The position numbers and the translations under genes were made by a program. The notes beneath the pieces are model-generated. The model had not been told where the DNA came from, made no database searches, and was given only the letters and a program-made list of their open reading frames with translations. 64,000 nucleotides of DNA, taken from IMG/VR virus record IMGVR_UViG_3300028653_000014, positions 19,070-83,069 of that record. One strand, written 5' to 3'. Below, one piece after another: positions 17,583 through 54,916 of the stretch (the first letter of the stretch is position 1; each line of letters opens with the position of its first letter). This DNA comes from a virus.

Positions 17583-20500
17583 CTAACGCGTCGCCCCGGT
17601 GAGATTCGTCGACGTCTTCTTCTGCCTGCCAGGGTTACGGCCGAGCGCGTTCGGGTTCACCTTCACGGCCTTCTCCGCCGCAAGGGTGTCGGCGATCGTC
17701 TTCGTGTTAGTCGCGATCTTCTTCTGCAACGCCGTGTTCGCCTTCGCGATTGTCAACTGCTGCTGCGCGACGTCGCGTTGCTGCTGCGCCACCAGCAACG
17801 CCGGTTGCACGATTGTGGCCTCCTGGCCGCTCCCGGTCGCGCCGCCCGTGAACCCGTTCAACGCCTTCGCCTGATCCTGGATGCCCTTCAGTTGCGCGTT
17901 GAAACCGTCCGCGAACGACGTGCCGAGCAGCTTCCCAGCCGTCTTGTAGCTGACCCCGTCCCTCTTCAGCAACGCCAGCAACTGATCGCGCCCCTTCGTG
18001 ACCGACAGCCGCCCGGTGTTGATCCCGTCCGTGATGTCGTTGATCGTCCGGGTCGCGGTGATCTTCCGCTGGTTCACCTGATCCTGGGCAACCGACAGGG
18101 ACGCCTGCTGGTACTGCTGCAGGAACGACTCGATGTACGGCTTCGTCGCCGTCGACGCCTTCGCGGCCAGCGACTGCAGTTCCGCAACCGCCTTGTTCGG
18201 GTCGGTCGACAACTGCTTGCCGCCCGGCAGCAGCGCGCTCCGGCGCAACTGGTCGAGCGAGAGCTTGTTTTGGGCCAACGTCAGCTTGTTCTGGAGGTTC
18301 GTCAGCGGCTGGTCGAGCACCGACCCGACACTCGACGCCAACGATTGCCCGATCGATGCGAGGTTCTGCTTCGCCTGGTTGATCGAGTTCGTCAGGTCGA
18401 TGGCGTTCTGCTGGATCGTCTGGCCGAGTTTCTCGTTCAGCAACCCGATCCTCTGCTGGGCCTCAGAGATCGCCTGCGCGTTCGTGTTAGAGGCCGTGGT
18501 CGCCGCCGCGATACCGGACTTCAGTGCCGCCTGGATCTGATCCTGGGCGCCCTGGATGGCCGCGTTGATCGGGTCGAGGAACAACGTCGCGAACCTCTGC
18601 CCGGCCGTCTGCGCTGAGGCAGCAGACAGCGGGTCGGGTAGCGCGTTGAAGAGAGCCGCCACACCGTTCCCGAGGCCCTTCCCCTCAGCGACCGCAGCCG
18701 TCAGCGACTGCGTGAAGTTGTCGCCTGTAGCCGTCCCTGCGTTCGTCGCGTACTGCGGCAACTCGTTCAGCCTCGTGACGATGTCACTGAGGCTCGTGGT
18801 GGCACTTCGGTTGTCGAGGATGAAGTTGATTTCCTTCTGGGTCGGTATCCGCCCGACCGTCAGGGTGAACTGAGAGAGCAGATCGAGGTTCTGACGTATC
18901 GTGGGCGTCAGGTTCTTCTGTGCGGCGGCGTCAGCCTGAATGCCCTGAGCGAAGTCGAGCGCCGCCTTCTGACGTGCTGCAGCAAAGTTTGACGCCGACT
19001 GGCCGGGGGTGGCCCCGACACCAGCACGCGTCCCACCGATCGGAACGTTGGCGTTCGTCGCCTGCGTCTTCAACGCCGCCACGAGGTCCTGTGCGGTCTT
19101 CTTCGCGGCAGTCTGACCTGTGGAGATTTTCGTCAGGTCGCTCTGGTACTGCGCCCGTGCGGCCTTTTGCTGCTGCAACGCCGCGTCAAGGTCGAGCACC
19201 GCCTGCTTGTAGGCAAGCGTTCCCTTCTTCCCGGCCGAGAGTTCGCTGTTCGCCTTCGCCTGCTGCACCGCGAGGTTCGCCTGCGCCAGAGAAAGTTTGT
19301 CCTGCGGGGTCGCCGCGAGTGCGGTGTTCAGATCGGTGATGCTCGATACGAAGTTTCGGTTTGCAGCCGTCGCGTCCGACTCCCGCGTTGCGAGATAGAC
19401 AATCCCGGCGGTAAGCCCGGCGATACCGACAACCGCAAGACCGACCGGGCCGGTCAGAGCGGCGATCCCACCCGCCAGCAGGCCGACGCCCTCCGCCCCG
19501 CCCGCCTCTACCGCCGATGCCGCTATCGCCTCGTTCGCAGCCACGACGGCAGCCGCGTTCGTCTCCACCGCCGCCGTGGTTGAGAACAGCCCTTCTACGA
19601 GCAGACTCAGGTTGCCGATGATCGTCCCGATCTTCCAGCCGAACCAGACGGCAGCCATGATCTTCACGGCGTTCCCCAATCCGCCCACGGCGCTGATGAC
19701 GGCCTGCAGGGGCGGCAGCACCGTCGACAGCACGTCCTTGACGCCGCCGATGATCTGCTTCGCGTCCGAGAGGGCCGAGTTCACGTCGCGCTGCAACTTC
19801 CCGGACTGCGTCATCTTCGTCAGCCATGCCCCGAGTTCCGACGTCAGACTCGACAGGGCCGGGAGCAGTGCGGCACCGATCACGTCCTTCGCGTTCGAGA
19901 ACGCCGCCGACAGTTGCCGCTGCTCGTTCGCGTAGTCGTGCGCGTGCGCGGCGGCCTGCTGCTGGAACTGGCCGAGATTCTCCGTCGCGAGCGCGTAGAT
20001 CGCCTCAGCCTTCTGCGCCGGGTTCAACGCCTGCGTGATCGAATCCGTCAGGCCCAGTTTGAACGCCGCGATCTTCTCGGACGTCGTGTCGACCGAGATG
20101 CCGAGTTGCTTCAACCCTCGGGTGTTGCCTGCCGCGGCCAGCACGATGCTCTGCAGCACCTGTGAAGGGTCGACGCCCTTGATCGCGGACAGTGACCCGG
20201 CGAGAGACTCGAACCCCTGAGTCATCCGGGCCGCCAACGACGGCGCGATGTCGAGGTTCTTGAAGAGGATGCCGAACCGCGCCGACGTGGCGTCCGCCGT
20301 TTGGGCGCTGATCCCGAGCGCCTGAGCGCCCTTCTCACCAAACGCCGTCAGCGCGTCACCCGACTTGCCGAACTCCTCCTGGATCACCTCCTGCGACTTC
20401 TGCAGGTTCGCGGCGCTGCCGACGACGTCCTTCGCGAACTTGACCGCGAACGCCGCCCCGATCCCGACGCCCAGCACCTTCGAAAGGCTGAACACCTTCG

Positions 20501-21763: not shown

Positions 21764-23188
21764 TCAAGTGGTCCTCGCCGCCTCCAAAGCCGGAAGTAGA
21801 AACGGCCTCGGAGCCGTGCGTTTATTCCCCACCCAGCCGACACCGCCCCCGCGCTTCGGATAAGCATGGGCCGTATTTCCATGCCCGAGTTCGACGTACG
21901 AGTTGCTCACCACCACGCCGTTCGCCAAAAACGAGTGAACGCCGTTTACGGCGAGGTCGTACAGGCTGGCGTGCCATGTCCCCTTTGACTTCGCCGCCTC
22001 GTCTCCGTAACGCCATGTCCTCAGAATGGTGGCCGGGACGACGCGGAATCTTTCAGGATCGACATATGACTTCGGGCCTGGGTTGCACACGACATAGCGA
22101 ACGCCCGCTAGAGGCTCTGGATCAATCGGCTCGAACGGCGGACGTGCCTTGTCGTAGAAATGAATGTGCGTGATCTCCACGCCGGGACAGAGGCGCAGGA
22201 GTTCTCGATCGCGCTCGATGTCTTTCTTCTGATCACGGTGCCAGTAGCCGCCGTCGGCCTCGATGATCTCGCGGCGCTCTGCATCGAAGAAGTCAACGAT
22301 GTAGTCACCAATCGGCACCTGGCGCTCGTAGTTCACTCCACGCTCATCAAGCCATGCGGCGACCTCGTACTCAGGTCGCGTCTCATGTCCCAACGCGGAA
22401 AGCTGTCTGTTCAGCCTGGCGCCCTGCTGACTTCGCTTCGCCGCCTCGGAAATCTTCTGGCGCGTAGCGTCAGAGCGGATGGCCCCAAGATGCGGATTCG
22501 CCCCGGCCGCCCATGCCTCATCCCGGCAGGCGGTGGAGCAATACCGCTTTCCTTGATTACGATGTGCGTCGAGGCAGTGATCGCACGTCTTTAGCAGTGC
22601 TGTTCCCTTGTTGTGAGCGAGTTTGCGCGTGGAATACAGCATGTCTCCATCGCGCAGGTCACCCGCGAAGATCCACTGATTACGCTCATCGCGCAGAACG
22701 AGAACGCGGTGATCGAGCGTCAGAGTGACTTGGTGAGTTCGATCTGATCTCCACGGCACTTCGATATCGATGAGTTCTGGCTTCTCGACTGCCGGAAAAG
22801 ACCACTTCCCGACGATCGGCTGGAAGTCTCCAGCCTGAGTGAGGACCTCTTCGCCTATCTCGATCTGACCGATAGTCCGCGGACCAGTTCTAGTCGTGAT
22901 CACAGTGTGCGCGTCGAAGACGCAGGCGTAACTGACGTTCGAGCCGATGTCGACATACGGGCCTTGCGAGTCGGCGCCTACCCGGTAGCCGATCGACGAA
23001 CGGAGACGGCCGGTGATGACGTTCGGCCCCGGCCGCCCCGTCGCGTTCGTCTTCGCGGCAGCCTCAACCCGGACGGCGCGCTTCACCAAGTCGACCACGA
23101 TCGCTTCGTTGAGCACCCGTGTGAACGCGGCAGCGTCGATCTGGAACTGGCCGAGCGTCGCCTGAATCTGGACATCGAGGACGCTCAC
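21764..23188 (-). CDS. HK97 gp10-like tail completion protein with intein
   Basis: Exteins TGRLRSSI...GSNVSYA|SYVELG...PRPFLLPAL give a 133-aa mature protein. Confidence 0.85.
   Translation of the reverse strand: MSVLDVQIQATLGQFQIDAAAFTRVLNEAIVVDLVKRAVRVEAAAKTNATGRPGPNVITGRLRSSIGYRVGADSQGPYVDIGSNVSYACVFDAHTVITTRTGPRTIGQIEIGEEVLTQAGDFQPIVGKWSFPAVEKPELIDIEVPWRSDRTHQVTLTLDHRVLVLRDERNQWIFAGDLRDGDMLYSTRKLAHNKGTALLKTCDHCLDAHRNQGKRYCSTACRDEAWAAGANPHLGAIRSDATRQKISEAAKRSQQGARLNRQLSALGHETRPEYEVAAWLDERGVNYERQVPIGDYIVDFFDAERREIIEADGGYWHRDQKKDIERDRELLRLCPGVEITHIHFYDKARPPFEPIDPEPLAGVRYVVCNPGPKSYVDPERFRVVPATILRTWRYGDEAAKSKGTWHASLYDLAVNGVHSFLANGVVVSNSYVELGHGNTAHAYPKRGGGVGWVGNKRTAPRPFLLPALEAARTT
21902..22924 (-). 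mobile_element. Intein (341 aa) with Zn-finger, NUMOD3-like and Vsr/DUF559-like endonuclease
   Basis: CVFDAHT start, TLDH block B, LYDLAV..HSFLANGVVVSN|S end; YERQVPIGDYIVDF...IEADGGYWH. Confidence 0.9.
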
Positions 23189-48681: not shown

Positions 48682-48734
48682 GGGTGAACTCCTTTTGGTT
48701 AAAGAGGGTCGACCCGGCAGGTGTGTCAAGTATG

Positions 48735-51701
48735 TCATTGCCCGAACGAGACTGAGCATCTGCAGTTAGCTACCTGCGAGACGTCACCATCTGGATCACC
48801 GGGGTAGTTCAGCGCGAACCCGTCAACGTCGAACGCCTCCTCAAGAGCGCGCTGCTGACCGTCGAGGCCGTCCACGAGTTCGTGTCGCGGATACAAAGCT
48901 CCCGGAGCCGTCATCCAAGTCTTGGGCATCGTCGAGCCGGTCGCCTGCCCGACGAGTTGCGCCGACGTGACCGCGGCGCCGTTCGCCAAACCGGTCATCT
49001 CCGTATTTCCCGTGTAGACGCCGTTCGCGATAAAGTACCCGTACGGCGTGCAGAGGTTGAAGACATAGCCAGCGAACGAGACCAGTCGACTCGCGATCAC
49101 GCGGTCCAACTGTATGTCTCCGGTCTCAGCGCGCGGGTGGTCGGGTCGGCTGTCGGCGTGGATAAGAGCGTCGTGCTGCGATGGGTCGACGCAGCCGGAA
49201 TACCTCGTCGCACTCTTCAGGAGGCTCGTGCTTTGTTCTTCGAGAACGGCGGGAACGTCCATAACCGCCGAGACGACATTAACGCTGCCGATGTGATCGA
49301 ACGCTTCAACTCGGGACGGGCGGTGAAAAAGATCGCCGGGGATCTGGACACGAGCGGAATTGTCATCCGACGAATCCTGCTCGAAAACGGGATCACCCCT
49401 CGAAACCCCGCAGAAGCAGGCGCTCTGGTCAATCGCCAGCAAGCCTCCGCACTCCGCGCAGAAGGGCGAATGTCCCAGTACGTCGGCTGGGGCGAAGACA
49501 TCATCGCCGAGATGCTCTCCGAGAGGGGCGAACATCCCGAGCGACAATTCCCCGTCGGGCCACGCAATCTCGACCTCGCCCTCATGCCCGTCGCCGTGGA
49601 AGTCTGGCTCTCCTCCGCTTCGCCTCTCAATGATCCCTACTGTCGCGACCGTCTCGAATATCTCAGCGATCGTGGCTGGTGGATTTGCTACATCTTCATC
49701 GCGCGCCGCACTCGGGTTTTGGTTCCCGAAGTAGCAGACGAGATCGTCTCCTTCGTTGAGTTCGCCCGCAGTTCTCCAGCCGCCGCGCGTGAGCATCGGG
49801 TGATTCGGGGTTGCGGTGAACTCGCGGCCAGATTCCATGACGATGACCGCCATGTCTCCCTCGTACCACCGTCTCGTGACTGCCCGCACCACAGCACCAT
49901 CAACAAGCGTCTCCGCGGGTAGACAGCGCGCGATCAGGGTGGAGCGGGTGACTGACGCCTGCTTCATGCCGGACCGGATCGCCTCGGCCGTGTCGGGGAT
50001 CGACAGTCCGGCCTGGTACGACTGGCCGATGATGTCCATCACGTCGGCCTGGGTCGTCTCGGTGATGTTCGTGACCTGGCTGGCGGACTTCGCGAGCACC
50101 CCGCTGATGAGCGGGTTGTGGACGTCCCAGTTCAGCCCGGCCGCTTCGAGGACAGGGGTCATGGCGGACTTGATGAACGCCTGCCGGATCGGCTCGGTGC
50201 GCGCCTTGATCTCAGCGATCAGCGCGGTCACGTCGAGGACTTCGGCCGGGGCGGGCGCTGTCCACTGCGGCGGGGTCGGCGTCGCGTCCTGATCGCCCGC
50301 GGCGGTCAACTGGCGAACCCCGGTCAGCGGGAAGTCTGCGACCACCTGGTTGCCCTGCACGATCTTCAGCGAGTCGAAGTGGAGTGGCGCGCCGAGTGTG
50401 GCCGTGTCGGGCGGCGCAGTCGAGTCATCCCGGTAGGCGATCGTCCCGTGTGGCTGGTAGCCGTGGTTGCGCGCGTAGTCGGCGTCCGCGACTAGCACCG
50501 CCGTACAGACCGCCTGGCGCAGCTCGACAAGCCCTGGCACGTCGGGAAGAACGATCGCTGGTGTCCCGTTGCCCTGGTCTTGGAACGCGCCGACACCGCC
50601 GACTGTCCCTTCGAGCGGCGGGTGAGACGCTGCGACGCGGGTGAGTGCGGTACGTACGGCGTCGACGGTCTCCTCGTCGGTGTCTCCGAGGTACGCGAGC
50701 GTCACGTGGATGTCCTCGGGCTTCTCGCCTCCCGTCTCAGCGATTGCGGCAGCCTCAGCCGGGCGCGGAAAGAGTGCGATCATGGTTGAGGCGCTCGTGA
50801 TGTCCGCAGCGGCCGTCAGCGCAAGTGACGCGAGCAGCGCGCGGCCTTCCTCCAACCCGATCGCACCGAGCGCGTCCCGGTCGGCACGGCGGGCAAGCGA
50901 GGCGGTGAGATGGTTCGTGACGCGGGACTGGAACGTGCGGGCCGCCTGCTCACCGGCCTGCTCTAGGATCGGCTGGATCGCGGCGGCGAGCTTCGGCTCC
51001 AACGCGTCGACGCGCTTCTGCGCCTCCGCCAGAACCTTGTTGTGGAGCAGAGGCGGGACGACCTTCGCGGGCGGCGCGGACTGCGGGGCGGCGTCGGCGG
51101 TCACGGCGTGGTCGGATTCTAGCCTCACCCATTCGTCACACACGTTCGACGGCGACACCGGCGCCCCGAACATCAGGCAGACGGCGTTCTCGTAGAACTT
51201 GCAGGTCGCGCAGGCCACGTCGGGGTCGTCCGATGCCCGGTAGTGGACGCGGGCCGGGATGCCGTCGTCCACAGGCTTGTCCCCATCTGTGGATTCGGCG
51301 AACGCCCGCTCGACGTGAGCCGCGACAATGGCAGGAAAGACGGCCTGGCGCGCATCTTCCGCAGTGGCGGGTTTGAGGATGTCGCTCAATCGAACCTCGT
51401 CGAACGCGGAGTCACGGACGACGCGAAACTCAAGTCCGCCCGGATTCGGGTTGGCGGCGGTAACGCGGGCGTTACTCGCAACCGTCCTGGCAGGGGAGAC
51501 CGAGGCTGGAACGCCGCCGTCCTCCCAAGCGTTGCAGAGCCGATCTCCTTGCACGGTCACGTCGAACCGTCCGCACTGGTCGACCGTCCCAGCGCCGTAG
51601 AACGAGCACGTCGCGCACGAGACCGCATGGGTCGGCGCAGGCCGGTACTGCTCCGACGCGGGGATCGTCCCGCGCCCGTCGTTCACAGTTCGCCCTTCCA
51701 C
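48735..51701 (-). CDS. MuF-like minor head protein with Cys-cluster repeats, a 2H phosphoesterase domain and an intein
   Basis: RSTLIAR|TE, KTW, RH, DGQ, YPGDP...NCRC; HVT and HGT 2H motifs. Confidence 0.85.
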   Translation of the reverse strand: MEGRTVNDGRGTIPASEQYRPAPTHAVSCATCSFYGAGTVDQCGRFDVTVQGDRLCNAWEDGGVPASVSPARTVASNARVTAANPNPGGLEFRVVRDSAFDEVRLSDILKPATAEDARQAVFPAIVAAHVERAFAESTDGDKPVDDGIPARVHYRASDDPDVACATCKFYENAVCLMFGAPVSPSNVCDEWVRLESDHAVTADAAPQSAPPAKVVPPLLHNKVLAEAQKRVDALEPKLAAAIQPILEQAGEQAARTFQSRVTNHLTASLARRADRDALGAIGLEEGRALLASLALTAAADITSASTMIALFPRPAEAAAIAETGGEKPEDIHVTLAYLGDTDEETVDAVRTALTRVAASHPPLEGTVGGVGAFQDQGNGTPAIVLPDVPGLVELRQAVCTAVLVADADYARNHGYQPHGTIAYRDDSTAPPDTATLGAPLHFDSLKIVQGNQVVADFPLTGVRQLTAAGDQDATPTPPQWTAPAPAEVLDVTALIAEIKARTEPIRQAFIKSAMTPVLEAAGLNWDVHNPLISGVLAKSASQVTNITETTQADVMDIIGQSYQAGLSIPDTAEAIRSGMKQASVTRSTLIARCLPAETLVDGAVVRAVTRRWYEGDMAVIVMESGREFTATPNHPMLTRGGWRTAGELNEGDDLVCYFGNQNPSAARDEDVANPPATIAEIFETVATVGIIERRSGGEPDFHGDGHEGEVEIAWPDGELSLGMFAPLGEHLGDDVFAPADVLGHSPFCAECGGLLAIDQSACFCGVSRGDPVFEQDSSDDNSARVQIPGDLFHRPSRVEAFDHIGSVNVVSAVMDVPAVLEEQSTSLLKSATRYSGCVDPSQHDALIHADSRPDHPRAETGDIQLDRVIASRLVSFAGYVFNLCTPYGYFIANGVYTGNTEMTGLANGAAVTSAQLVGQATGSTMPKTWMTAPGALYPRHELVDGLDGQQRALEEAFDVDGFALNYPGDPDGDVSQVANCRCSVSFGQ
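49005..49925 (-). mobile_element. Intein (307 aa) with no sense-strand endonuclease
   Basis: CLPAETLV, ATPNHPMLTRGGW..AGELNEGD, VFNL...YFIANGVYTGN|T. Confidence 0.9.
49065..49922 (+). CDS. HTH + Vsr/DUF559-like endonuclease encoded antisense within the intein (start uncertain; frame open from 48882)
   Basis: Two HTH-like segments; GEDIIAEMLSERG...ERQFPVGPRNLDLA..VAVEV...YLSDRGWWICYIF. Confidence 0.75.
   Translation: MASERDQSTRDHAVQLYVSGLSARVVGSAVGVDKSVVLRWVDAAGIPRRTLQEARALFFENGGNVHNRRDDINAADVIERFNSGRAVKKIAGDLDTSGIVIRRILLENGITPRNPAEAGALVNRQQASALRAEGRMSQYVGWGEDIIAEMLSERGEHPERQFPVGPRNLDLALMPVAVEVWLSSASPLNDPYCRDRLEYLSDRGWWICYIFIARRTRVLVPEVADEIVSFVEFARSSPAAAREHRVIRGCGELAARFHDDDRHVSLVPPSRDCPHHSTINKRLRG
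51459..51476. repeat. 18-bp pseudo-palindrome, copy 13 (intragenic)
   Basis: GGTAACGCGGGCGTTACT. Confidence 0.85.
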
Positions 51702-51871: not shown

Positions 51872-54800
51872 CTACTTGCCCGCCGTCAGCAGTCCCTGAA
51901 CGAACTGCGGGAACGAGTCCGGCATCAGTTGCGGCTTCAAGTCGTACAGCGTGCGGGCCGCGTGCTTCTCGATCGTGTCCGCAATCGACGTCTGCACCCC
52001 GTCGTCCGTGATCCCGAACACCCTGAGCGCGTCGAGGATCAACGTGCGGGCGCCGCCGACGAGGGCGGCCTCTGACGGGACGTTGGGGAGGTTCCGCACG
52101 CGCGCACGTCCCAGAGTGGCTGCAACGTCGCGTGCCGGGACGCCCTCTATCAGCGCGAGGGTTTCATCGTCGCGACGTGCGAGCGTCCGTAGGCGGCTTC
52201 CTGCGGCCTCACGAGCACGTAGGAGCGCCAACTGGGCGGCGCCCTGAACCATCACCGTCTGTGCCCGCTGCGCGGACGCCACGACCTCGTTGTCGACCCC
52301 GGCCGGGTCGTCCTTCGGCACAGGCGGCGTCTTCTCGACGTCGGCCGCCGTGACTCCGCCATCGCCTGTAGTGCCACCGTCTGGACCGGGCGAGACGAGC
52401 GTGTCCGAGTCCGGCTCAAGTTCGGAGTTCTGCCTGAGCGACGGGACGCCGTAGACAGCCAGCGACGGGTCGCGCAGCTTGACGCCGAGCCAACGGTTCC
52501 GCTCCTCCTCGGTCGGCGCGTCGTTGTCGCCGAAGTTCGCGACACCGCGCAGCGCCTCGTCACCGATGACGCCACGGTCGTGGAGGTCCTTCGCGTCCTT
52601 CGTGCGGTCCGGATGGTTGATGACCGCGGTCGCGTCGTACGCGATCACGTATTTCCCCCAGTCCGCGATGTTCTGATCCATCAGGTACGGGGACAGGTAG
52701 GCGTCCGTCAAGTCCTGCACGAGCGAATCCGCGACAGGCTGCAGGTGGTACTTCCACGTGATCTCGTCGATGTTCCAGGCGCTGTTGCCGGTGAAGAACG
52801 TCCGCCCGTCCCGCCGCGCAAGCCATGTGCGGTTCACCGTGGTGGGGCACCAGACGACTCCCGAGTAACTGACTATCTCGTCCGTGGCGCCGTCGTCGTT
52901 GAACTGCCGTCCGGCTTCCTGCGCCGCCTTGACAGGCCGTACCGCCAGAGAGCGCAGCGCCCGCACGACAACACCGCCATCGTGTGACGGTTGCCGGGAG
53001 GCGGCGCGGCCCGAGAGGATCACCGCAAGCTCGAATGCGTCGAGCCGGGCCGGGTCCTTCTGCCAGACGTCGAGTAGGCCGCCGCGGTAATGATGGCCGT
53101 CCCCCTGGCAGGAGACGTCGATGAAGAGTTCTAGTTGCGCCCTGCTCAGCGCCGAGATGAACTCCGGGCTGACGCATTTCGACGGCGCGATGTCGAGCAG
53201 GGGCTTCGACGCCTGCTGGTTCAGGTGGAAGACGGTGATGGGGACGCCGTGACTTCCATCGTTCTGCTGAATGGCCTCACGCCATGCCGGGACACCGAGC
53301 ATCCTCGTCTTGCCGACCGATGGTCCGTAGAGACGGGTCAGGCAGCCGCGGATGCGCTCCACCCTGTCGGCGTTCCGGGTGTGGGACTGAGCGATCGACA
53401 GCGTCTTGCCTCGCGCGTGTCCTTCCGTCCAGAACCAGGCGGCAAGCTCTACTAGATCGTCCGGAACGACGGCAAGATTCTCGTCGCCCGCGAACGCACC
53501 CGTGATGATCGAATCGGCAGCGGTCAGGCGCTTCGTTGTCGTCCACTCCCGCGATACGTACGGAACCTTGTCCTTGTGCCGAAGCCGTGTAACCGGCCAG
53601 CGATGGTTCAGCGTCGTGAGCGAACTGTGCGTGCGACTCTCCAGCCGACGCATCGGCTCGTTCGTCACGCCAGCGCGATAGATGTCCAGAACGGGCTGCC
53701 ACTCGGCGAGGCCGGTCTCGTGATTGAGAGTGCGTACGACGTCGCCCGTTTCGAGGTCGTCGTGCGTCACCCATCCTCTGTCCTTCGTCAGAATCTCCGT
53801 CGATTCGTCCGAGCACCAGTGGTTGACGTCGCCCAATCCGAGAAGGACTTCGGGCGGCATGTCGAGCGAGACGGCGAGGCGGCGGATGCACTCGTCGCGC
53901 AGCCCGGTCTCCGGGTACACCTGGGTCGGGTCGATGATCTGGAGATGGAAGACCAAGTCGGAGAGTTTCATCCCTTCAGGGACGCGCACACGGGCGACGA
54001 GCGGTACGACGGCCCCGGCGGTGCCTTCGTTGATGATCGGCTTCGTCATCGCCTCCGTCAGGTCGGCGAGGAACGGGTCCTCCTGCGGGTCCTCGTCCGG
54101 GGCGGCCTCTGACGGGGTGGTGGTGATCCGGTCGTCGATGAACAGGACGCCGGAGCCTGCGAGGCGTGACCGGGCGCGGGCACGGACGGCCTGCGTGAGG
54201 AGCACGTACTCCTCCAGGATGTCCAGGCACGCCATGACGGACGAGTCGGCCAGCGACGACCAGCGCGGATGCCGTTTCCAGATCCGGTAGGCGACCGCCG
54301 TGTCTGCGAGCGGCTCGAAGTCCTTGTCGGGGGCCGGGTAGAACTGGTTCGCGGGAAGCTGCGGCGCCTTGAAGCGGGTGTAGAGGCCCTCGATCAGCCG
54401 CACCTCGTCGGTGGAGAGCATCTCCCACTGTTCCAGCTTCGTCCGCTGGTTGATCGTGACGAGCAGATACGCCTCGCCGACGAGGAACATCAGGCGGCCG
54501 TAGTTCGCCAACAGCCCGGTGCGCCCGGTGCCGCCCGGGTCTTTGATCCGGGCGAGCGCGTCGATGACGACCTCGTTCTTCGTACGGACGACCTCGCCCG
54601 TCTCCTCGTCGATCTCCCCGGCGAACAACTCCAACTGGGCGAGTGCGCGGCTGTAGAACTGGGCGGCGTACTTGAGCGGCCCGACGATATCGTAGTAGCC
54701 CATCGCGCGTACCTGCCACGCCTGGATCAGTCGGCGCAGATAGGTCGCGTCGCCGTGCTGCACCAACTCCCCTGCCGCGGTGAGTGAGCCGGGCTGCTCT

Positions 54801-54916
54801 GCCCGGAGCCGATCCATTTCGGCCCGGACGGCGTTGTGGCGTGCGCTGACCCGATCAGGGGACGCGTCCTTATAGAGAACCGGGGTTGTGTCGCGGCGGC
54901 GACTGAACAGCGCCAT
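51872..54916 (-). CDS. Portal protein with intein
   Basis: WQ..A..YYD.VG, VGEAYL, RIW..HP, SRLAGSG, LDMPPEVLLG...NHW|SAW. Confidence 0.85.
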   Translation of the reverse strand: MALFSRRRDTTPVLYKDASPDRVSARHNAVRAEMDRLRAEQPGSLTAAGELVQHGDATYLRRLIQAWQVRAMGYYDIVGPLKYAAQFYSRALAQLELFAGEIDEETGEVVRTKNEVVIDALARIKDPGGTGRTGLLANYGRLMFLVGEAYLLVTINQRTKLEQWEMLSTDEVRLIEGLYTRFKAPQLPANQFYPAPDKDFEPLADTAVAYRIWKRHPRWSSLADSSVMACLDILEEYVLLTQAVRARARSRLAGSGVLFIDDRITTTPSEAAPDEDPQEDPFLADLTEAMTKPIINEGTAGAVVPLVARVRVPEGMKLSDLVFHLQIIDPTQVYPETGLRDECIRRLAVSLDMPPEVLLGLGDVNHWCSDESTEILTKDRGWVTHDDLETGDVVRTLNHETGLAEWQPVLDIYRAGVTNEPMRRLESRTHSSLTTLNHRWPVTRLRHKDKVPYVSREWTTTKRLTAADSIITGAFAGDENLAVVPDDLVELAAWFWTEGHARGKTLSIAQSHTRNADRVERIRGCLTRLYGPSVGKTRMLGVPAWREAIQQNDGSHGVPITVFHLNQQASKPLLDIAPSKCVSPEFISALSRAQLELFIDVSCQGDGHHYRGGLLDVWQKDPARLDAFELAVILSGRAASRQPSHDGGVVVRALRSLAVRPVKAAQEAGRQFNDDGATDEIVSYSGVVWCPTTVNRTWLARRDGRTFFTGNSAWNIDEITWKYHLQPVADSLVQDLTDAYLSPYLMDQNIADWGKYVIAYDATAVINHPDRTKDAKDLHDRGVIGDEALRGVANFGDNDAPTEEERNRWLGVKLRDPSLAVYGVPSLRQNSELEPDSDTLVSPGPDGGTTGDGGVTAADVEKTPPVPKDDPAGVDNEVVASAQRAQTVMVQGAAQLALLRAREAAGSRLRTLARRDDETLALIEGVPARDVAATLGRARVRNLPNVPSEAALVGGARTLILDALRVFGITDDGVQTSIADTIEKHAARTLYDLKPQLMPDSFPQFVQGLLTAGK
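52784..53815 (-). mobile_element. Intein (344 aa) with LAGLIDADG endonuclease
   Basis: CSDESTEILT..RGW, TLNHRW, AAWFWTEG, SCQGDG, VWCPTT...FFTGN|S. Confidence 0.92.

Follow-up and report, generated by a model that had tools for sequence, protein, structure and literature searches.

The window, a stretch of 64,000 nucleotides of virus DNA (positions 19,070 to 83,069 of the IMG/VR record IMGVR_UViG_3300028653_000014), includes a gene for a minor head protein that is interrupted by an intein, and the strand opposite the intein encodes, in the same codon register, a second protein. The features of this locus are listed in Table 1. The N-extein of the host protein contains a 2H/LigT phosphoesterase domain (Pfam 2_5_RNA_ligase2, E 5.5e-16), and the C-terminal part is MuF-like, with residues 898-986 matching the head morphogenesis, portal-MuF and MuF-type families of PHROG (E 9.4e-21). 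The Pfam search did not report Phage_Mu_F for the window host protein; this profile matches the host ORFs of 7 of 10 relatives, and a search with the C-extein retrieved 597 phage records that are annotated mainly as MuF-like.

Table 1. Coordinates of the head gene, its intein and the features encoded on the opposite strand
Feature	Coordinates	Strand	Description and basis
Host gene	48735..51701	-	988-aa LigT/MuF-like minor head protein precursor, intein-interrupted; ORF call, Pfam, PHROG
Intein	49005..49925	-	307 aa, class 1, 921 bases
C-terminal splicing lobe	49005..49118	-	Intein residues 270-307, blocks F and G; pLDDT 90-96
Candidate -10 hexamer TAAAGT	49031..49036	+	Unsupported; mirror of the 'YFI' codons between blocks F and G
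Shine-Dalgarno-like AGAGG	49052..49056	+	8 nt before the start position; mirror of block F Asn-Leu-Cys codons
Start-codon position	49065..49067	+	ATA; mirror of block F Tyr TAT
Antisense endonuclease ORF	49065..49922	+	285 codons plus TAG, counted from the ATG position of relatives; tblastn/HMMER homologues
Two helix-turn-helix units	49083..49385	+	Product residues about 7-43 and 74-107
Vsr-like (PD-(D/E)XK-class) nuclease domain	49479..49838	+	Product residues 139-258
N-terminal splicing lobe	49725..49925	-	Intein residues 1-67, blocks A and B; pLDDT 91-96
Stop codon TAG	49920..49922	+	Mirror of intein codon 2 (Leu CTA)

The coordinates of the intein and of the ORFs, and the sequence strings, that were given in an initial annotation made from the letters alone are all present and correct to the base. 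The intein carries the signature residues C1 (in CLPAETLV), T39-P-N-H42 (block B, TPNHP), GYVFNL (block F), N307 and T+1, and belongs to class 1 by its Cys1, block B Thr-x-x-His, C-terminal Asn and Thr at +1. Its C-terminus reads VYTGN followed by Thr+1, so that the penultimate residue is Gly ('TGN') instead of the usual block G His, as is also the case in 24 of 26 aligned relatives; in class 1 inteins, this His is usual but not universal. The Pfam Intein_splicing profile matches the 988-aa precursor with E 7.9e-7, under the cut-off of that profile. From the conserved blocks and the conserved host frame, the intein is predicted to be active in splicing. Profile matches of the sense intein are to HINT only, and a search of the sense-strand insert for a nuclease found none recognisable, as the initial annotation had maintained. 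In the predicted structure, residues 173-266 have a pLDDT of about 30; the insert as modelled is not a plain disordered linker throughout because residues 81-170, which mirror the nuclease core, have pLDDT 61-90.

In the codon register of the intein, the + strand is free of stops from 48756 up to the TAG that ends at 49922; as originally described, this frame spans the whole intein and its stop falls on intein codon 2. In most related loci, too, the antisense stop mirrors this codon. Opposite the N-terminal splicing lobe lie the C-terminal hairpin and tail of the nuclease, and opposite the C-terminal lobe lies the translation-initiation region of the nuclease gene. The AF2 model of the antisense product (mean pLDDT 85) combines HTH units with a Vsr-like nuclease; the catalytic domain, as modelled, has a Vsr-type fold, and the fold relatives include I-Bth0305I, with every Foldseek E-value for the predicted nuclease above 0.001. 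By column conservation in the alignment, the acidic residues E144, D170 and E179 are invariant or nearly so. None of the Pfam-type nuclease families matches the window product at E<=0.01, and the curated threshold of DUF559/MTES_1575 is not reached; MTES_1575 matches 4 of 23 members of the antisense family, with E down to 2.2e-5.

Relatives of the antisense product are numerous. A tblastn search with the + product matches 50 phage records, including Gordonia, Klebsiella, Pseudomonas, Aggregatibacter, Cronobacter and Salmonella phages, with E down to 7e-35, a value reached by the antisense strand of the MuF genes of Gordonia phages (Vivi2, Fosterous, Affeca and Angelicage; 31-33% identity). In all six GenBank records examined (Fosterous, Klebsiella RCIP0054, Pseudomonas BR313c, Aaphi23, Malisha and APunk), the match lies opposite an annotated MuF or minor head gene, and the nuclease is annotated in none. 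Furthermore, 24 called proteins of about 280 aa match the + product (24-60% identity, E down to 3e-88), IMG/VR holds 80 related viral loci (E down to 1e-84), and 1,287 cluster representatives are related at E<=1e-30. In every locus resolved, the relative is antisense inside an intein. The insertion sites and hosts of these inteins vary (they include MuF 'ARTE|T', MuF 'N|CRC' and a terminase), and the insertion point in the window is two codons off that of the relatives. In two pairs of loci (L016/L017 and L019/L020), the intein DNA is 100% identical and the flanks are only 80-82% identical; in a third pair (L037/L038), the intein is 99.9% identical compared with 77% on one flank. Such identical elements in diverged exteins are a homing signature, indicating at the sequence level that related elements moved recently.

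An open antisense frame alone is unremarkable in the window, because the mirror-stop codons TTA, CTA and TCA are rare (1.07% of codons in the window, where the phage has a GC content of 65%) and same-register antisense open runs of at least 307 codons occur in 7 of 25 long ORFs. What goes beyond chance is the content of the + frame, namely, its homologues, confident fold and codon-position statistics, and these bear out the original perception that what reads as the middle of the intein mirrors a genuine antisense gene encoding an HTH-HTH-Vsr-like nuclease. As anticipated in the initial annotation, homologous inteins keep the antisense frame open: a same-register - strand ORF of 300-1239 codons spans the motif-bearing + ORF in 77 of the 80 viral loci, including loci with 42-44% GC, in which each element would be expected to have 6-17 mirror stops but has none. 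Over 59 distinct inteins, TTA, CTA and TCA number 0 against 304 expected for the + frame and 80 against 355 expected for the - frame. Selection on the + frame, likewise raised at the outset, is apparent in the relatives, in which substitutions in the middle follow the + frame and those in the splicing blocks follow the - frame. Among 28 distinct sequences, with the middle represented by 225 codon columns, variability peaks at position 3 of the + frame in 153 columns versus 67 (P 3.5e-11; this and the other P values overstate independence, the loci being related to one another), and BLOSUM conservation favours the + frame in 180 columns versus 45. The pattern is reversed in blocks F/G (22 versus 6) and A/B (30 versus 15); the sense frame is better conserved in the N-terminal splicing lobe (36 columns versus 14) and in 27 of 30 columns of the C-terminal lobe. 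In these alignments, each frame is evidently under selection where its own protein needs it.

The translation signals of the nuclease gene are embedded in block F. In 56 of 59 distinct loci, the antisense start is the mirror of the block F His codon (CAT reversed gives ATG), confirming the suggestion that a His codon at 49065 would supply ATG. The start position is occupied by ATG in 51 loci and by GTG in 5, a canonical start being absent only from the window, L007 and L079; in alignment A1, the column occupied by Ile in the window product holds an initial Met in most of the 22 relatives. In the 35 loci with at least 60% GC, the block F His is encoded by CAT in 31 and by CAC in 4, compared with 25% CAT in exteins (P 3e-15). 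A Shine-Dalgarno (SD)-like motif is found in 49 of 56 relatives with a canonical start; the SD of the family is the mirror of the Asn-Leu codons, so the AGAGG proposed initially corresponds to a conserved element, and in GC-rich loci CTC or CTT encodes the block F Leu in 29 of 34 cases versus 49% in exteins (P 1.4e-5). Synonymous codon choice in these loci evidently preserves the antisense start signals. The other expression signals proposed for the window fared less well: a consensus scan of 48700-50100 detected no full sigma-70-type promoter, a search of RNA runs found none with the sequence, a TANNNT hexamer lies at the offset of TAAAGT (-34) in 10 of 31 related two-HTH-type loci, and the start codon is ATA, not ATG. 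Of the nearest in-frame canonical starts in the window, two lie upstream (GTG 48882 and TTG 48957) and one downstream (GTG 49137), and none of the three has an SD. Given that the Tyr codon TAT yields ATA at the start position, expression of the nuclease from the window copy appears doubtful. Apart from the start codon, the window nuclease shows no decay that can be read from its sequence: it retains 27 of 28 conserved residues (all 10 that are invariant and 17 of the 18 that are nearly so), scores 376 bits against a profile built without it (rank 12 of 36), and has no missense excess by profile score or conserved residues. In our reading, this copy either is translated weakly from ATA, with its SD intact, or fell silent very recently.

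The locus very probably represents a dual-strand mobile element that combines a class 1 intein on the - strand with a free-standing homing nuclease gene on the + strand, with an ATA start in the window copy. Under this explanation, 49005-49925 would be a single mobile element coding on both strands in one codon register. Read on the - strand, with the late head gene, the element would yield a class 1 intein in which a linker, part of it predicted to be disordered, connects the HINT lobes (residues 1 to about 67 and 270-307), and self-splicing would be expected to restore the MuF motif 'IAR-TE'. The + strand would carry a free-standing gene of 285 codons, the product of which, a site-specific endonuclease, would combine a pair of DNA-binding helix-turn-helix units with a Vsr-like nuclease resembling those of I-Bth0305I and the 'fractured genes'. 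The ribosome-binding site and ATG of the family would be the reverse complement of block F (His-Val-Tyr/Phe-Asn-Leu), and the last 40 or so residues of the nuclease, together with the stop, would correspond in the same way to blocks B and A. The nuclease would cut intein-free alleles of the head gene in co-infecting phage, repair would then copy in the whole element (homing), and the window start would have become ATA via a His to Tyr change in the sense frame. Both frames are kept open and both folds are predicted with confidence; we infer that the intein splices and that the nuclease cuts, and the same applies to where it cuts and to when it is made, for which the initial annotation proposed early expression independent of the head gene.

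A more specific proposition, which we consider evenly balanced, is that block F also serves to initiate translation of the nuclease, such that splicing motifs and expression signals form one inseparable sequence. The His would then be held as CAT because of the ATG, and Asn-Leu as AAC-CTC/CTT because of the Shine-Dalgarno, and the last beta-hairpin of the nuclease would mirror block B; being one physical sequence, the splicing motifs and the nuclease signals could not be separated by recombination or deletion. If so, loss of the start and missense changes would be the only routes of decay open to the nuclease because the host frame purges frameshifts, and the ATG to ATA allele of the window would represent either a naturally weakened start or the onset of decay.

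A competing possibility, to which we give somewhat less than an even chance, is that the window contains a splicing-competent intein the antisense nuclease of which has already been inactivated by the change from ATG to ATA, the initial stage of decay in the homing cycle. The ORF would look intact since sense selection forbids frameshifts and GC-rich codons rarely give mirror stops; indeed, for such a dual-coded design, an intact ORF is weak evidence of function because sense-frame selection purges frameshifts and mirror stops are rare at 65% GC. The ATA with no alternative SD-preceded start is compatible with a dead nuclease, as are the loss of the canonical start in only 3 of 59 distinct loci, implying that ATG is normally kept, the decay seen elsewhere in the family (in L005 and L048, the nuclease is split over two frames) and the commonness of open antisense runs at this GC content. 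The contigs of four metagenome runs yielded no intein-free allele as a homing target, a weak point in the same direction. However, the window nuclease lacks a missense excess, its AGAGG is intact, and ATA can serve as a weak start in bacteria.

The possibility that the + frame is not a gene, and is instead a chance open frame in GC-rich DNA the conservation of which mirrors a sense domain, appears negligible. Long antisense open runs in other window ORFs, conserved sense motifs in the middle (e.g., PDFHGDG) and the pLDDT of sense residues 81-170 are what such a reading could draw on, and it is contradicted by the open frame in relatives with 42-44% GC, the third-position variability of the + frame, the HTH plus Vsr-like fold of a product opposite a sense middle that matches only HINT, and the CAT and CTC/CTT bias that preserves ATG and SD. 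It is unlikely, too, that the antisense protein, real and expressed, functions mainly outside homing, as an anti-phage or host-DNA nuclease or as a regulator for which the intein is a safe site. The gene resides inside an intein in every locus resolved, several insertion sites and hosts are occupied, always with inteins, identical elements occur in diverged exteins, and the fold relatives include a proven homing endonuclease, I-Bth0305I. In favour of another role, two HTH units could serve regulation, the family is very large, and nothing in the present analysis ties the target to the insertion site.

Contrary to the initial annotation, which knew of no description of this arrangement, Gosselin, Arsenault and Gogarten (bioRxiv 10.1101/2025.01.02.630785, version 2025-10-20) report, in the portions of the preprint considered here, that full inteins in the minor capsid genes of actinobacteriophages carry anti-sense VSR-like endonucleases, with horizontal transfer seen for some clusters. 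Like those elements, the one in the window combines a contiguous intein with a separate antisense ORF (minor capsid proteins being among the hosts) and has a sense-frame middle without recognisable structure, splicing blocks in the host frame, an opposite-strand ORF over the endonuclease region and a Vsr-like core. It departs from them in lacking, with its ATA, the canonical antisense start implied for a functional secondary ORF of that kind. The survey as described in those portions covers PhagesDB actinophages only, whereas the window family extends to Klebsiella, Pseudomonas, Aggregatibacter, Cronobacter and Salmonella phages. The passages searched make no mention of a start codon, promoter or ribosome, nor was the dual use of block F found in them; the window ORF runs from block F to intein codon 2. 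The same preprint, in the parts considered, cites anti-sense LAGLIDADG ORFs in inteins (Gorbalenya 1998; Gogarten et al. 2002), in which the endonuclease ORF is likewise opposite the intein strand but represents another nuclease family in cellular genes (Synechocystis dnaX and Chloroflexus SpoVR-like).

Other known systems share parts of this design. In the 'fractured genes' (Dassa et al. 2009, PMC2677866), in the sections considered here, a split intein and its host gene occupy two ORFs with a free-standing Vsr-like endonuclease gene between them, unlike the window intein, which is one continuous frame reading through the opposite-strand nuclease gene. I-Bth0305I is intron-encoded and not dual-coded, and shares 21% sequence identity with the window nuclease in the structural alignment; the EDxHD motif as such was not found in the window protein, the conserved acidic residues being E144, D170 and E179. 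A canonical large intein at 21764-23188 of the same window contains an in-frame DUF559/Vsr-like nuclease (Pfam DUF559, E 2.1e-10). The two inteins of this phage share the splicing fold and the nuclease fold class, but the nuclease of 21764-23188 is part of the spliced-out polypeptide and that of 49065..49922 is a separate protein from the opposite strand. The likeness between the two nucleases that had been noted by eye stands as a common fold class and a weak hhalign match, limited to 30 columns (E 2.1e-4, probability 46%).

The arrangement is thus real and widespread and already described in the 2025 preprint, and the window is a further example rather than a new kind, adding the loss of the start codon, an insertion point two codons from that of the relatives and the dual-use block F. 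The element illustrates that some 900 bases are enough for two folded proteins encoded on opposite strands in a shared codon register, and this dual coding persists across very different phages and GC contents, providing a clean natural case for the study of overlapping-gene constraints. The presence in one phage of Vsr-class nucleases both in-frame and antisense bears on the gain and loss of endonucleases by inteins. Gene callers and intein surveys that read the host frame only class these elements as endonuclease-free inteins. Judging from the models, the family may represent a source of candidate site-specific nucleases with modular HTH recognition.

The minor head protein precursor encoded on the - strand contains the intein claimed by the initial annotation, with exact boundaries and the splicing blocks as described; the key features are listed in the table below. 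The source IMG/VR virus record is 83 kb long and 86% complete (CheckV), the GC content of the window is 65%, and the sequence is present in rhizosphere metagenome runs and in no listed RNA run. In Pfam searches, the 988-aa protein matched 2_5_RNA_ligase2 (2H/LigT phosphoesterase; E 5.5e-16) and, under the curated cut-off, Intein_splicing (E 7.9e-7), and its C-terminal part matched the PHROG head-morphogenesis/MuF families. The 2H/LigT-like domain lies within the N-extein; in a relative, locus L041, such a domain is located on the opposite side of the MuF part. The host gene had no megablast match among phages, and the N-extein had no relative in viral contigs nor, by tblastn, in phages. Among the host-gene queries, the C-extein alone matched MuF genes, leading to an intein-free site in L089.

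Features of the minor head protein gene, its intein and the other insert-bearing genes in the window
Feature	Position	Strand	Remarks
Minor head protein precursor	48735..51701	-	ORF, 988 aa
2H phosphoesterase/LigT-like domain	50409-50711	-	TIGR02258, E 2.5e-9
Intein	49005-49925	-	307 aa; Cys1 (CLPAETLV), block B TPNHP, block F GYVFNL, ...VYTGN then Thr+1
Intein junctions	49002-49004, 49926-49928		IAR/C...N/TE (slashes, junctions)
Intein residues 81-170	49416-49685	-	mirror of nuclease core
Antisense nuclease ORF	49065..49922	+	285 codons
TAAAGT	49031-49036	+	candidate -10 hexamer, a guess
SD-like AGAGG	49052-49056	+	as first described
ATA at family start position	49065	+	sense His to Tyr (TAT)
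Stop codon TAG	49920-49922	+	reverse complement of intein codon 2 (Leu CTA)
Second intein	21764-23188	-	in HK97 gp10-like virion protein
Portal gene	51872-54916	-	protein split by insert
Portal insert	52784-53815	-	344 aa; putative intein

The + frame opposite this intein is a gene. As initially annotated, the + strand is open in the intein codon register, from 48756 to the stop on the second codon of the intein. By itself, this openness is not above chance in the window, where TTA, CTA and TCA, the codons that mirror stops on the opposite strand, make up 1.07% of all codons, and same-register antisense open runs of at least 307 codons occur in 7 of the 25 long ORFs. The case for the gene comes from the product of the frame and the pattern of its evolution, and it is on these grounds, rather than on openness, that a chance open frame is rejected as the explanation. 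A tblastn search of 50,697 phage records with the + product matched 50 (E down to 7e-35), including phages of Gordonia (15), Pseudomonas (15), Klebsiella (8) and Escherichia (4), plus others. In all 6 records that were opened, those of Gordonia phages Fosterous, Malisha and APunk, Klebsiella phage RCIP0054, Pseudomonas phage vB_Pae_BR313c and Aaphi23, the match lies opposite an annotated MuF-like or minor-head gene, and the antisense nuclease gene is unannotated. RCIP0054 has an antisense run of 304 open codons, and Aaphi23 (43% GC) has one of 338 codons that includes an ATG. Of the 6 opened GenBank phage records (L001-L004, L085 and L086), 3 name the host gene merely as a 'hypothetical protein'. 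A large protein collection yielded 24 called proteins, mostly of about 280 aa, with 24-60% identity and E values to 3e-88; searching 1.84 billion representatives with a profile recovered 1,287 proteins at E<=1e-30, and a scan of IMG/VR for the antisense nuclease family, 80 loci.

The two coding frames persist together across these relatives. A same-register - strand ORF of 300-1239 codons spans the + ORF bearing the family C-terminal motif in 77 of the 80 viral loci; the remaining 3 run into contig ends or carry frameshifts. Of 84 sources, 72 allowed both intein junctions to be placed, and these contain 59 distinct DNA sequences. Among the 59, the + frame contains 0 mirror stops, where 304 would be expected from how each locus uses its Leu and Ser codons; junction finding demanded that both junctions lie within one - strand ORF, and a scan of the 80 loci without this demand revealed no broken host frame. 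For single loci at 42-44% GC, the probability of finding none is 1e-5 to 5e-8. The - frame contains 80 mirror stops against 355 expected, most of the 80 being the single codon per locus that mirrors the nuclease stop.

Selection on the two frames switches along the element. Because the codon boundaries are common to both frames, a single codon alignment, of 28 distinct sequences of the window's type, serves both. Across the middle 225 columns, variability peaks at + position 3, which is sense position 1 (153 vs 67, Wilcoxon P 3.5e-11), and BLOSUM62 conservation favours the + translation (180 vs 45, P 1.3e-17), these P values being generous because the 28 sequences are mutually related. In the splicing blocks the pattern is reversed: in the 30 columns of blocks F/G, the column counts for variability are 22 vs 6 and the sense translation is better conserved in 27, and in the 50 columns of blocks A/B, the variability counts are 30 vs 15 and the sense translation is better conserved in 36 vs 14. 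The direction of the effect is clear.

The nuclease ORF starts in block F and stops at intein codon 2, and thus overlaps both splicing lobes. A canonical start is found no more than 8 codons from the mirror of the block-F Asn in 56 of the 59 distinct loci (51 ATG, 5 GTG), corresponds in all 56 to a sense His codon read backwards, and is preceded by an SD-like motif in 49. In most loci the stop mirrors intein codon 2; in some it falls deeper within the intein or slightly beyond its edge. In block B, TATPNHP mirrors the nuclease hairpin HRVIRGCG. The initial annotation reasoned that a His CAT codon at the start position would give ATG, and this is borne out in the homologues, with CAT strongly preferred: in the 35 loci with a GC content of 60% or more, the start-mirroring His is encoded by CAT 31 times and by CAC 4 times, compared with CAT at 72 of 289 His codons in the exteins of the same loci (P 3e-15). 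Likewise, the Leu of Asn-Leu is encoded by CTC or CTT, which read GAG or AAG on the other strand, in 29 of 34 loci vs 49% in exteins (P 1.4e-5). Such biased choice among synonymous codons shows that selection acts on the antisense signal and, at the level of codon choice, that expression signals are written into block F, with its predicted dual use as ribosome-binding site and start.

The window itself is one of 3 loci among the 59 without a canonical start, together with L007 and L079. Its ATA, at the alignment column where most of the 24 called proteins have Met and the window Ile, is preceded by an intact AGAGG, and none of the other in-frame starts (GTG 48882, TTG 48957, GTG 49137) has an SD. 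All three strings proposed as expression signals are present, but no sigma-70-type promoter was found by consensus scan at TAAAGT, or anywhere in 48700-50100; a TANNNT hexamer at the same offset in 10 of 31 related loci is suggestive at most of a promoter. Otherwise, the nuclease gene looks healthy, its product retaining every one of the 10 invariant residues and 17 of the 18 that are nearly so, and scoring 376 bits (rank 12 of 36) against a profile built without it. ORF intactness says little here, given that the host frame purges frameshifts and that mirror stops seldom arise at 65% GC; the lack of missense decay suggests that either the ATG was lost recently or the ATA still works weakly. 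In two other loci, the nuclease reading frame is split across two frames, indicative of decaying copies: in L005, the host frame is open through the intein, and in L048, a stop interrupts the frame that mirrors the nuclease fragment.

The structure of the + product, modelled from a 23-sequence alignment, has a mean pLDDT of 85. Foldseek gave no match to this model at E<=0.001; 3r3p ranked top with a probability of 0.99 and E 0.038, and the assignment of the nuclease fold rests on VIA-align. Pfam searches over 23 family members detected HTH families in 12-13 and REase MTES_1575 in 4; for the window protein alone, the best match was HTH_23 (E 0.023). The sense intein model (26 sequences) has pLDDT of 91-96 over residues 1-60 and 90-96 over residues 271-307, about 30 over residues 173-266, and intermediate values of 61-90 over residues 81-170. 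The last segment mirrors the nuclease core and has invariant motifs such as PDFHGDG, which sits opposite VAVEVW of the nuclease; the segment may complete the HINT N-lobe or may only reflect mirrored conservation.

Two other genes in the window carry insertions. The intein in the HK97 gp10-like virion protein (Pfam HK97-gp10_like E 5.4e-4; TIGR01443 intein C-terminus) contains a Vsr-class nuclease in-frame (DUF559, E 2.1e-10), so that one phage carries the Vsr class in both orientations relative to an intein. The portal protein insert starts with Cys (CSDESTEIL) and ends with ...FFTGN before Ser and, by eye, looks like a third intein; it had no Pfam match and no PDB sequence match. Its same-register antisense frame contains 4 stops, and hence no antisense ORF.

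The element appears to be mobile. The intein DNA is 100% identical between L016/L017 and L019/L020, where the flanks (300-nt exteins) are 80-82% identical, and 99.9% identical in L037/L038, vs 77% on one flank; an identical element in diverged flanks is a signature of the kind expected from recent homing or horizontal transfer. Insertion sites are several: in MuF, some elements follow 'ARTE' and others precede the 'CRC' of the C-terminal motif, and a terminase is also invaded. All 27 other distinct inteins of the window's type sit after Glu or Ala, mostly as RTE/C...N/T; the window intein separates the Arg and Thr of the MuF motif, so that it is placed two codons upstream of its relatives, and the intein-free MuF of L089 reads IARTETHAY. 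The window extein has Met in place of the relatives' +1 Thr, making the Thr of 'TE' the nearest usable nucleophile. No intein-free allele was present in contigs of metagenome runs X13-X16, all of which cover the intein with no skipping joint, although these low-depth contigs say little.

The observation and core reading of the initial annotation hold, but the arrangement was not new: Gosselin, Arsenault and Gogarten (bioRxiv 10.1101/2025.01.02.630785) report 63 actinophage inteins with non-canonical endonucleases, including VSR-like ones on the anti-sense strand, and note that invaded minor capsid proteins have non-canonical types only. The preprint cites Gorbalenya 1998 and Gogarten et al. 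2002 for earlier cases of LAGLIDADG ORFs lying anti-sense in inteins, and Dassa et al. 2009 (PMC2677866) described a family of Vsr-like endonucleases located between the two parts of split inteins. The terms 'start codon', 'promoter' and 'ribosom' are absent from the searched text of the preprint, the supplements of which may name close relatives or the same features. Relative to that text, the present analysis extends the reach of the family into phages of Proteobacteria and adds the frame-switching selection, with total mirror-stop avoidance, and the apparent double role of block F, which would supply both the start and the ribosome-binding site. For the window, it adds the lost ATG, the insertion site shifted by two codons, and the second intein with an in-frame nuclease of the same class.
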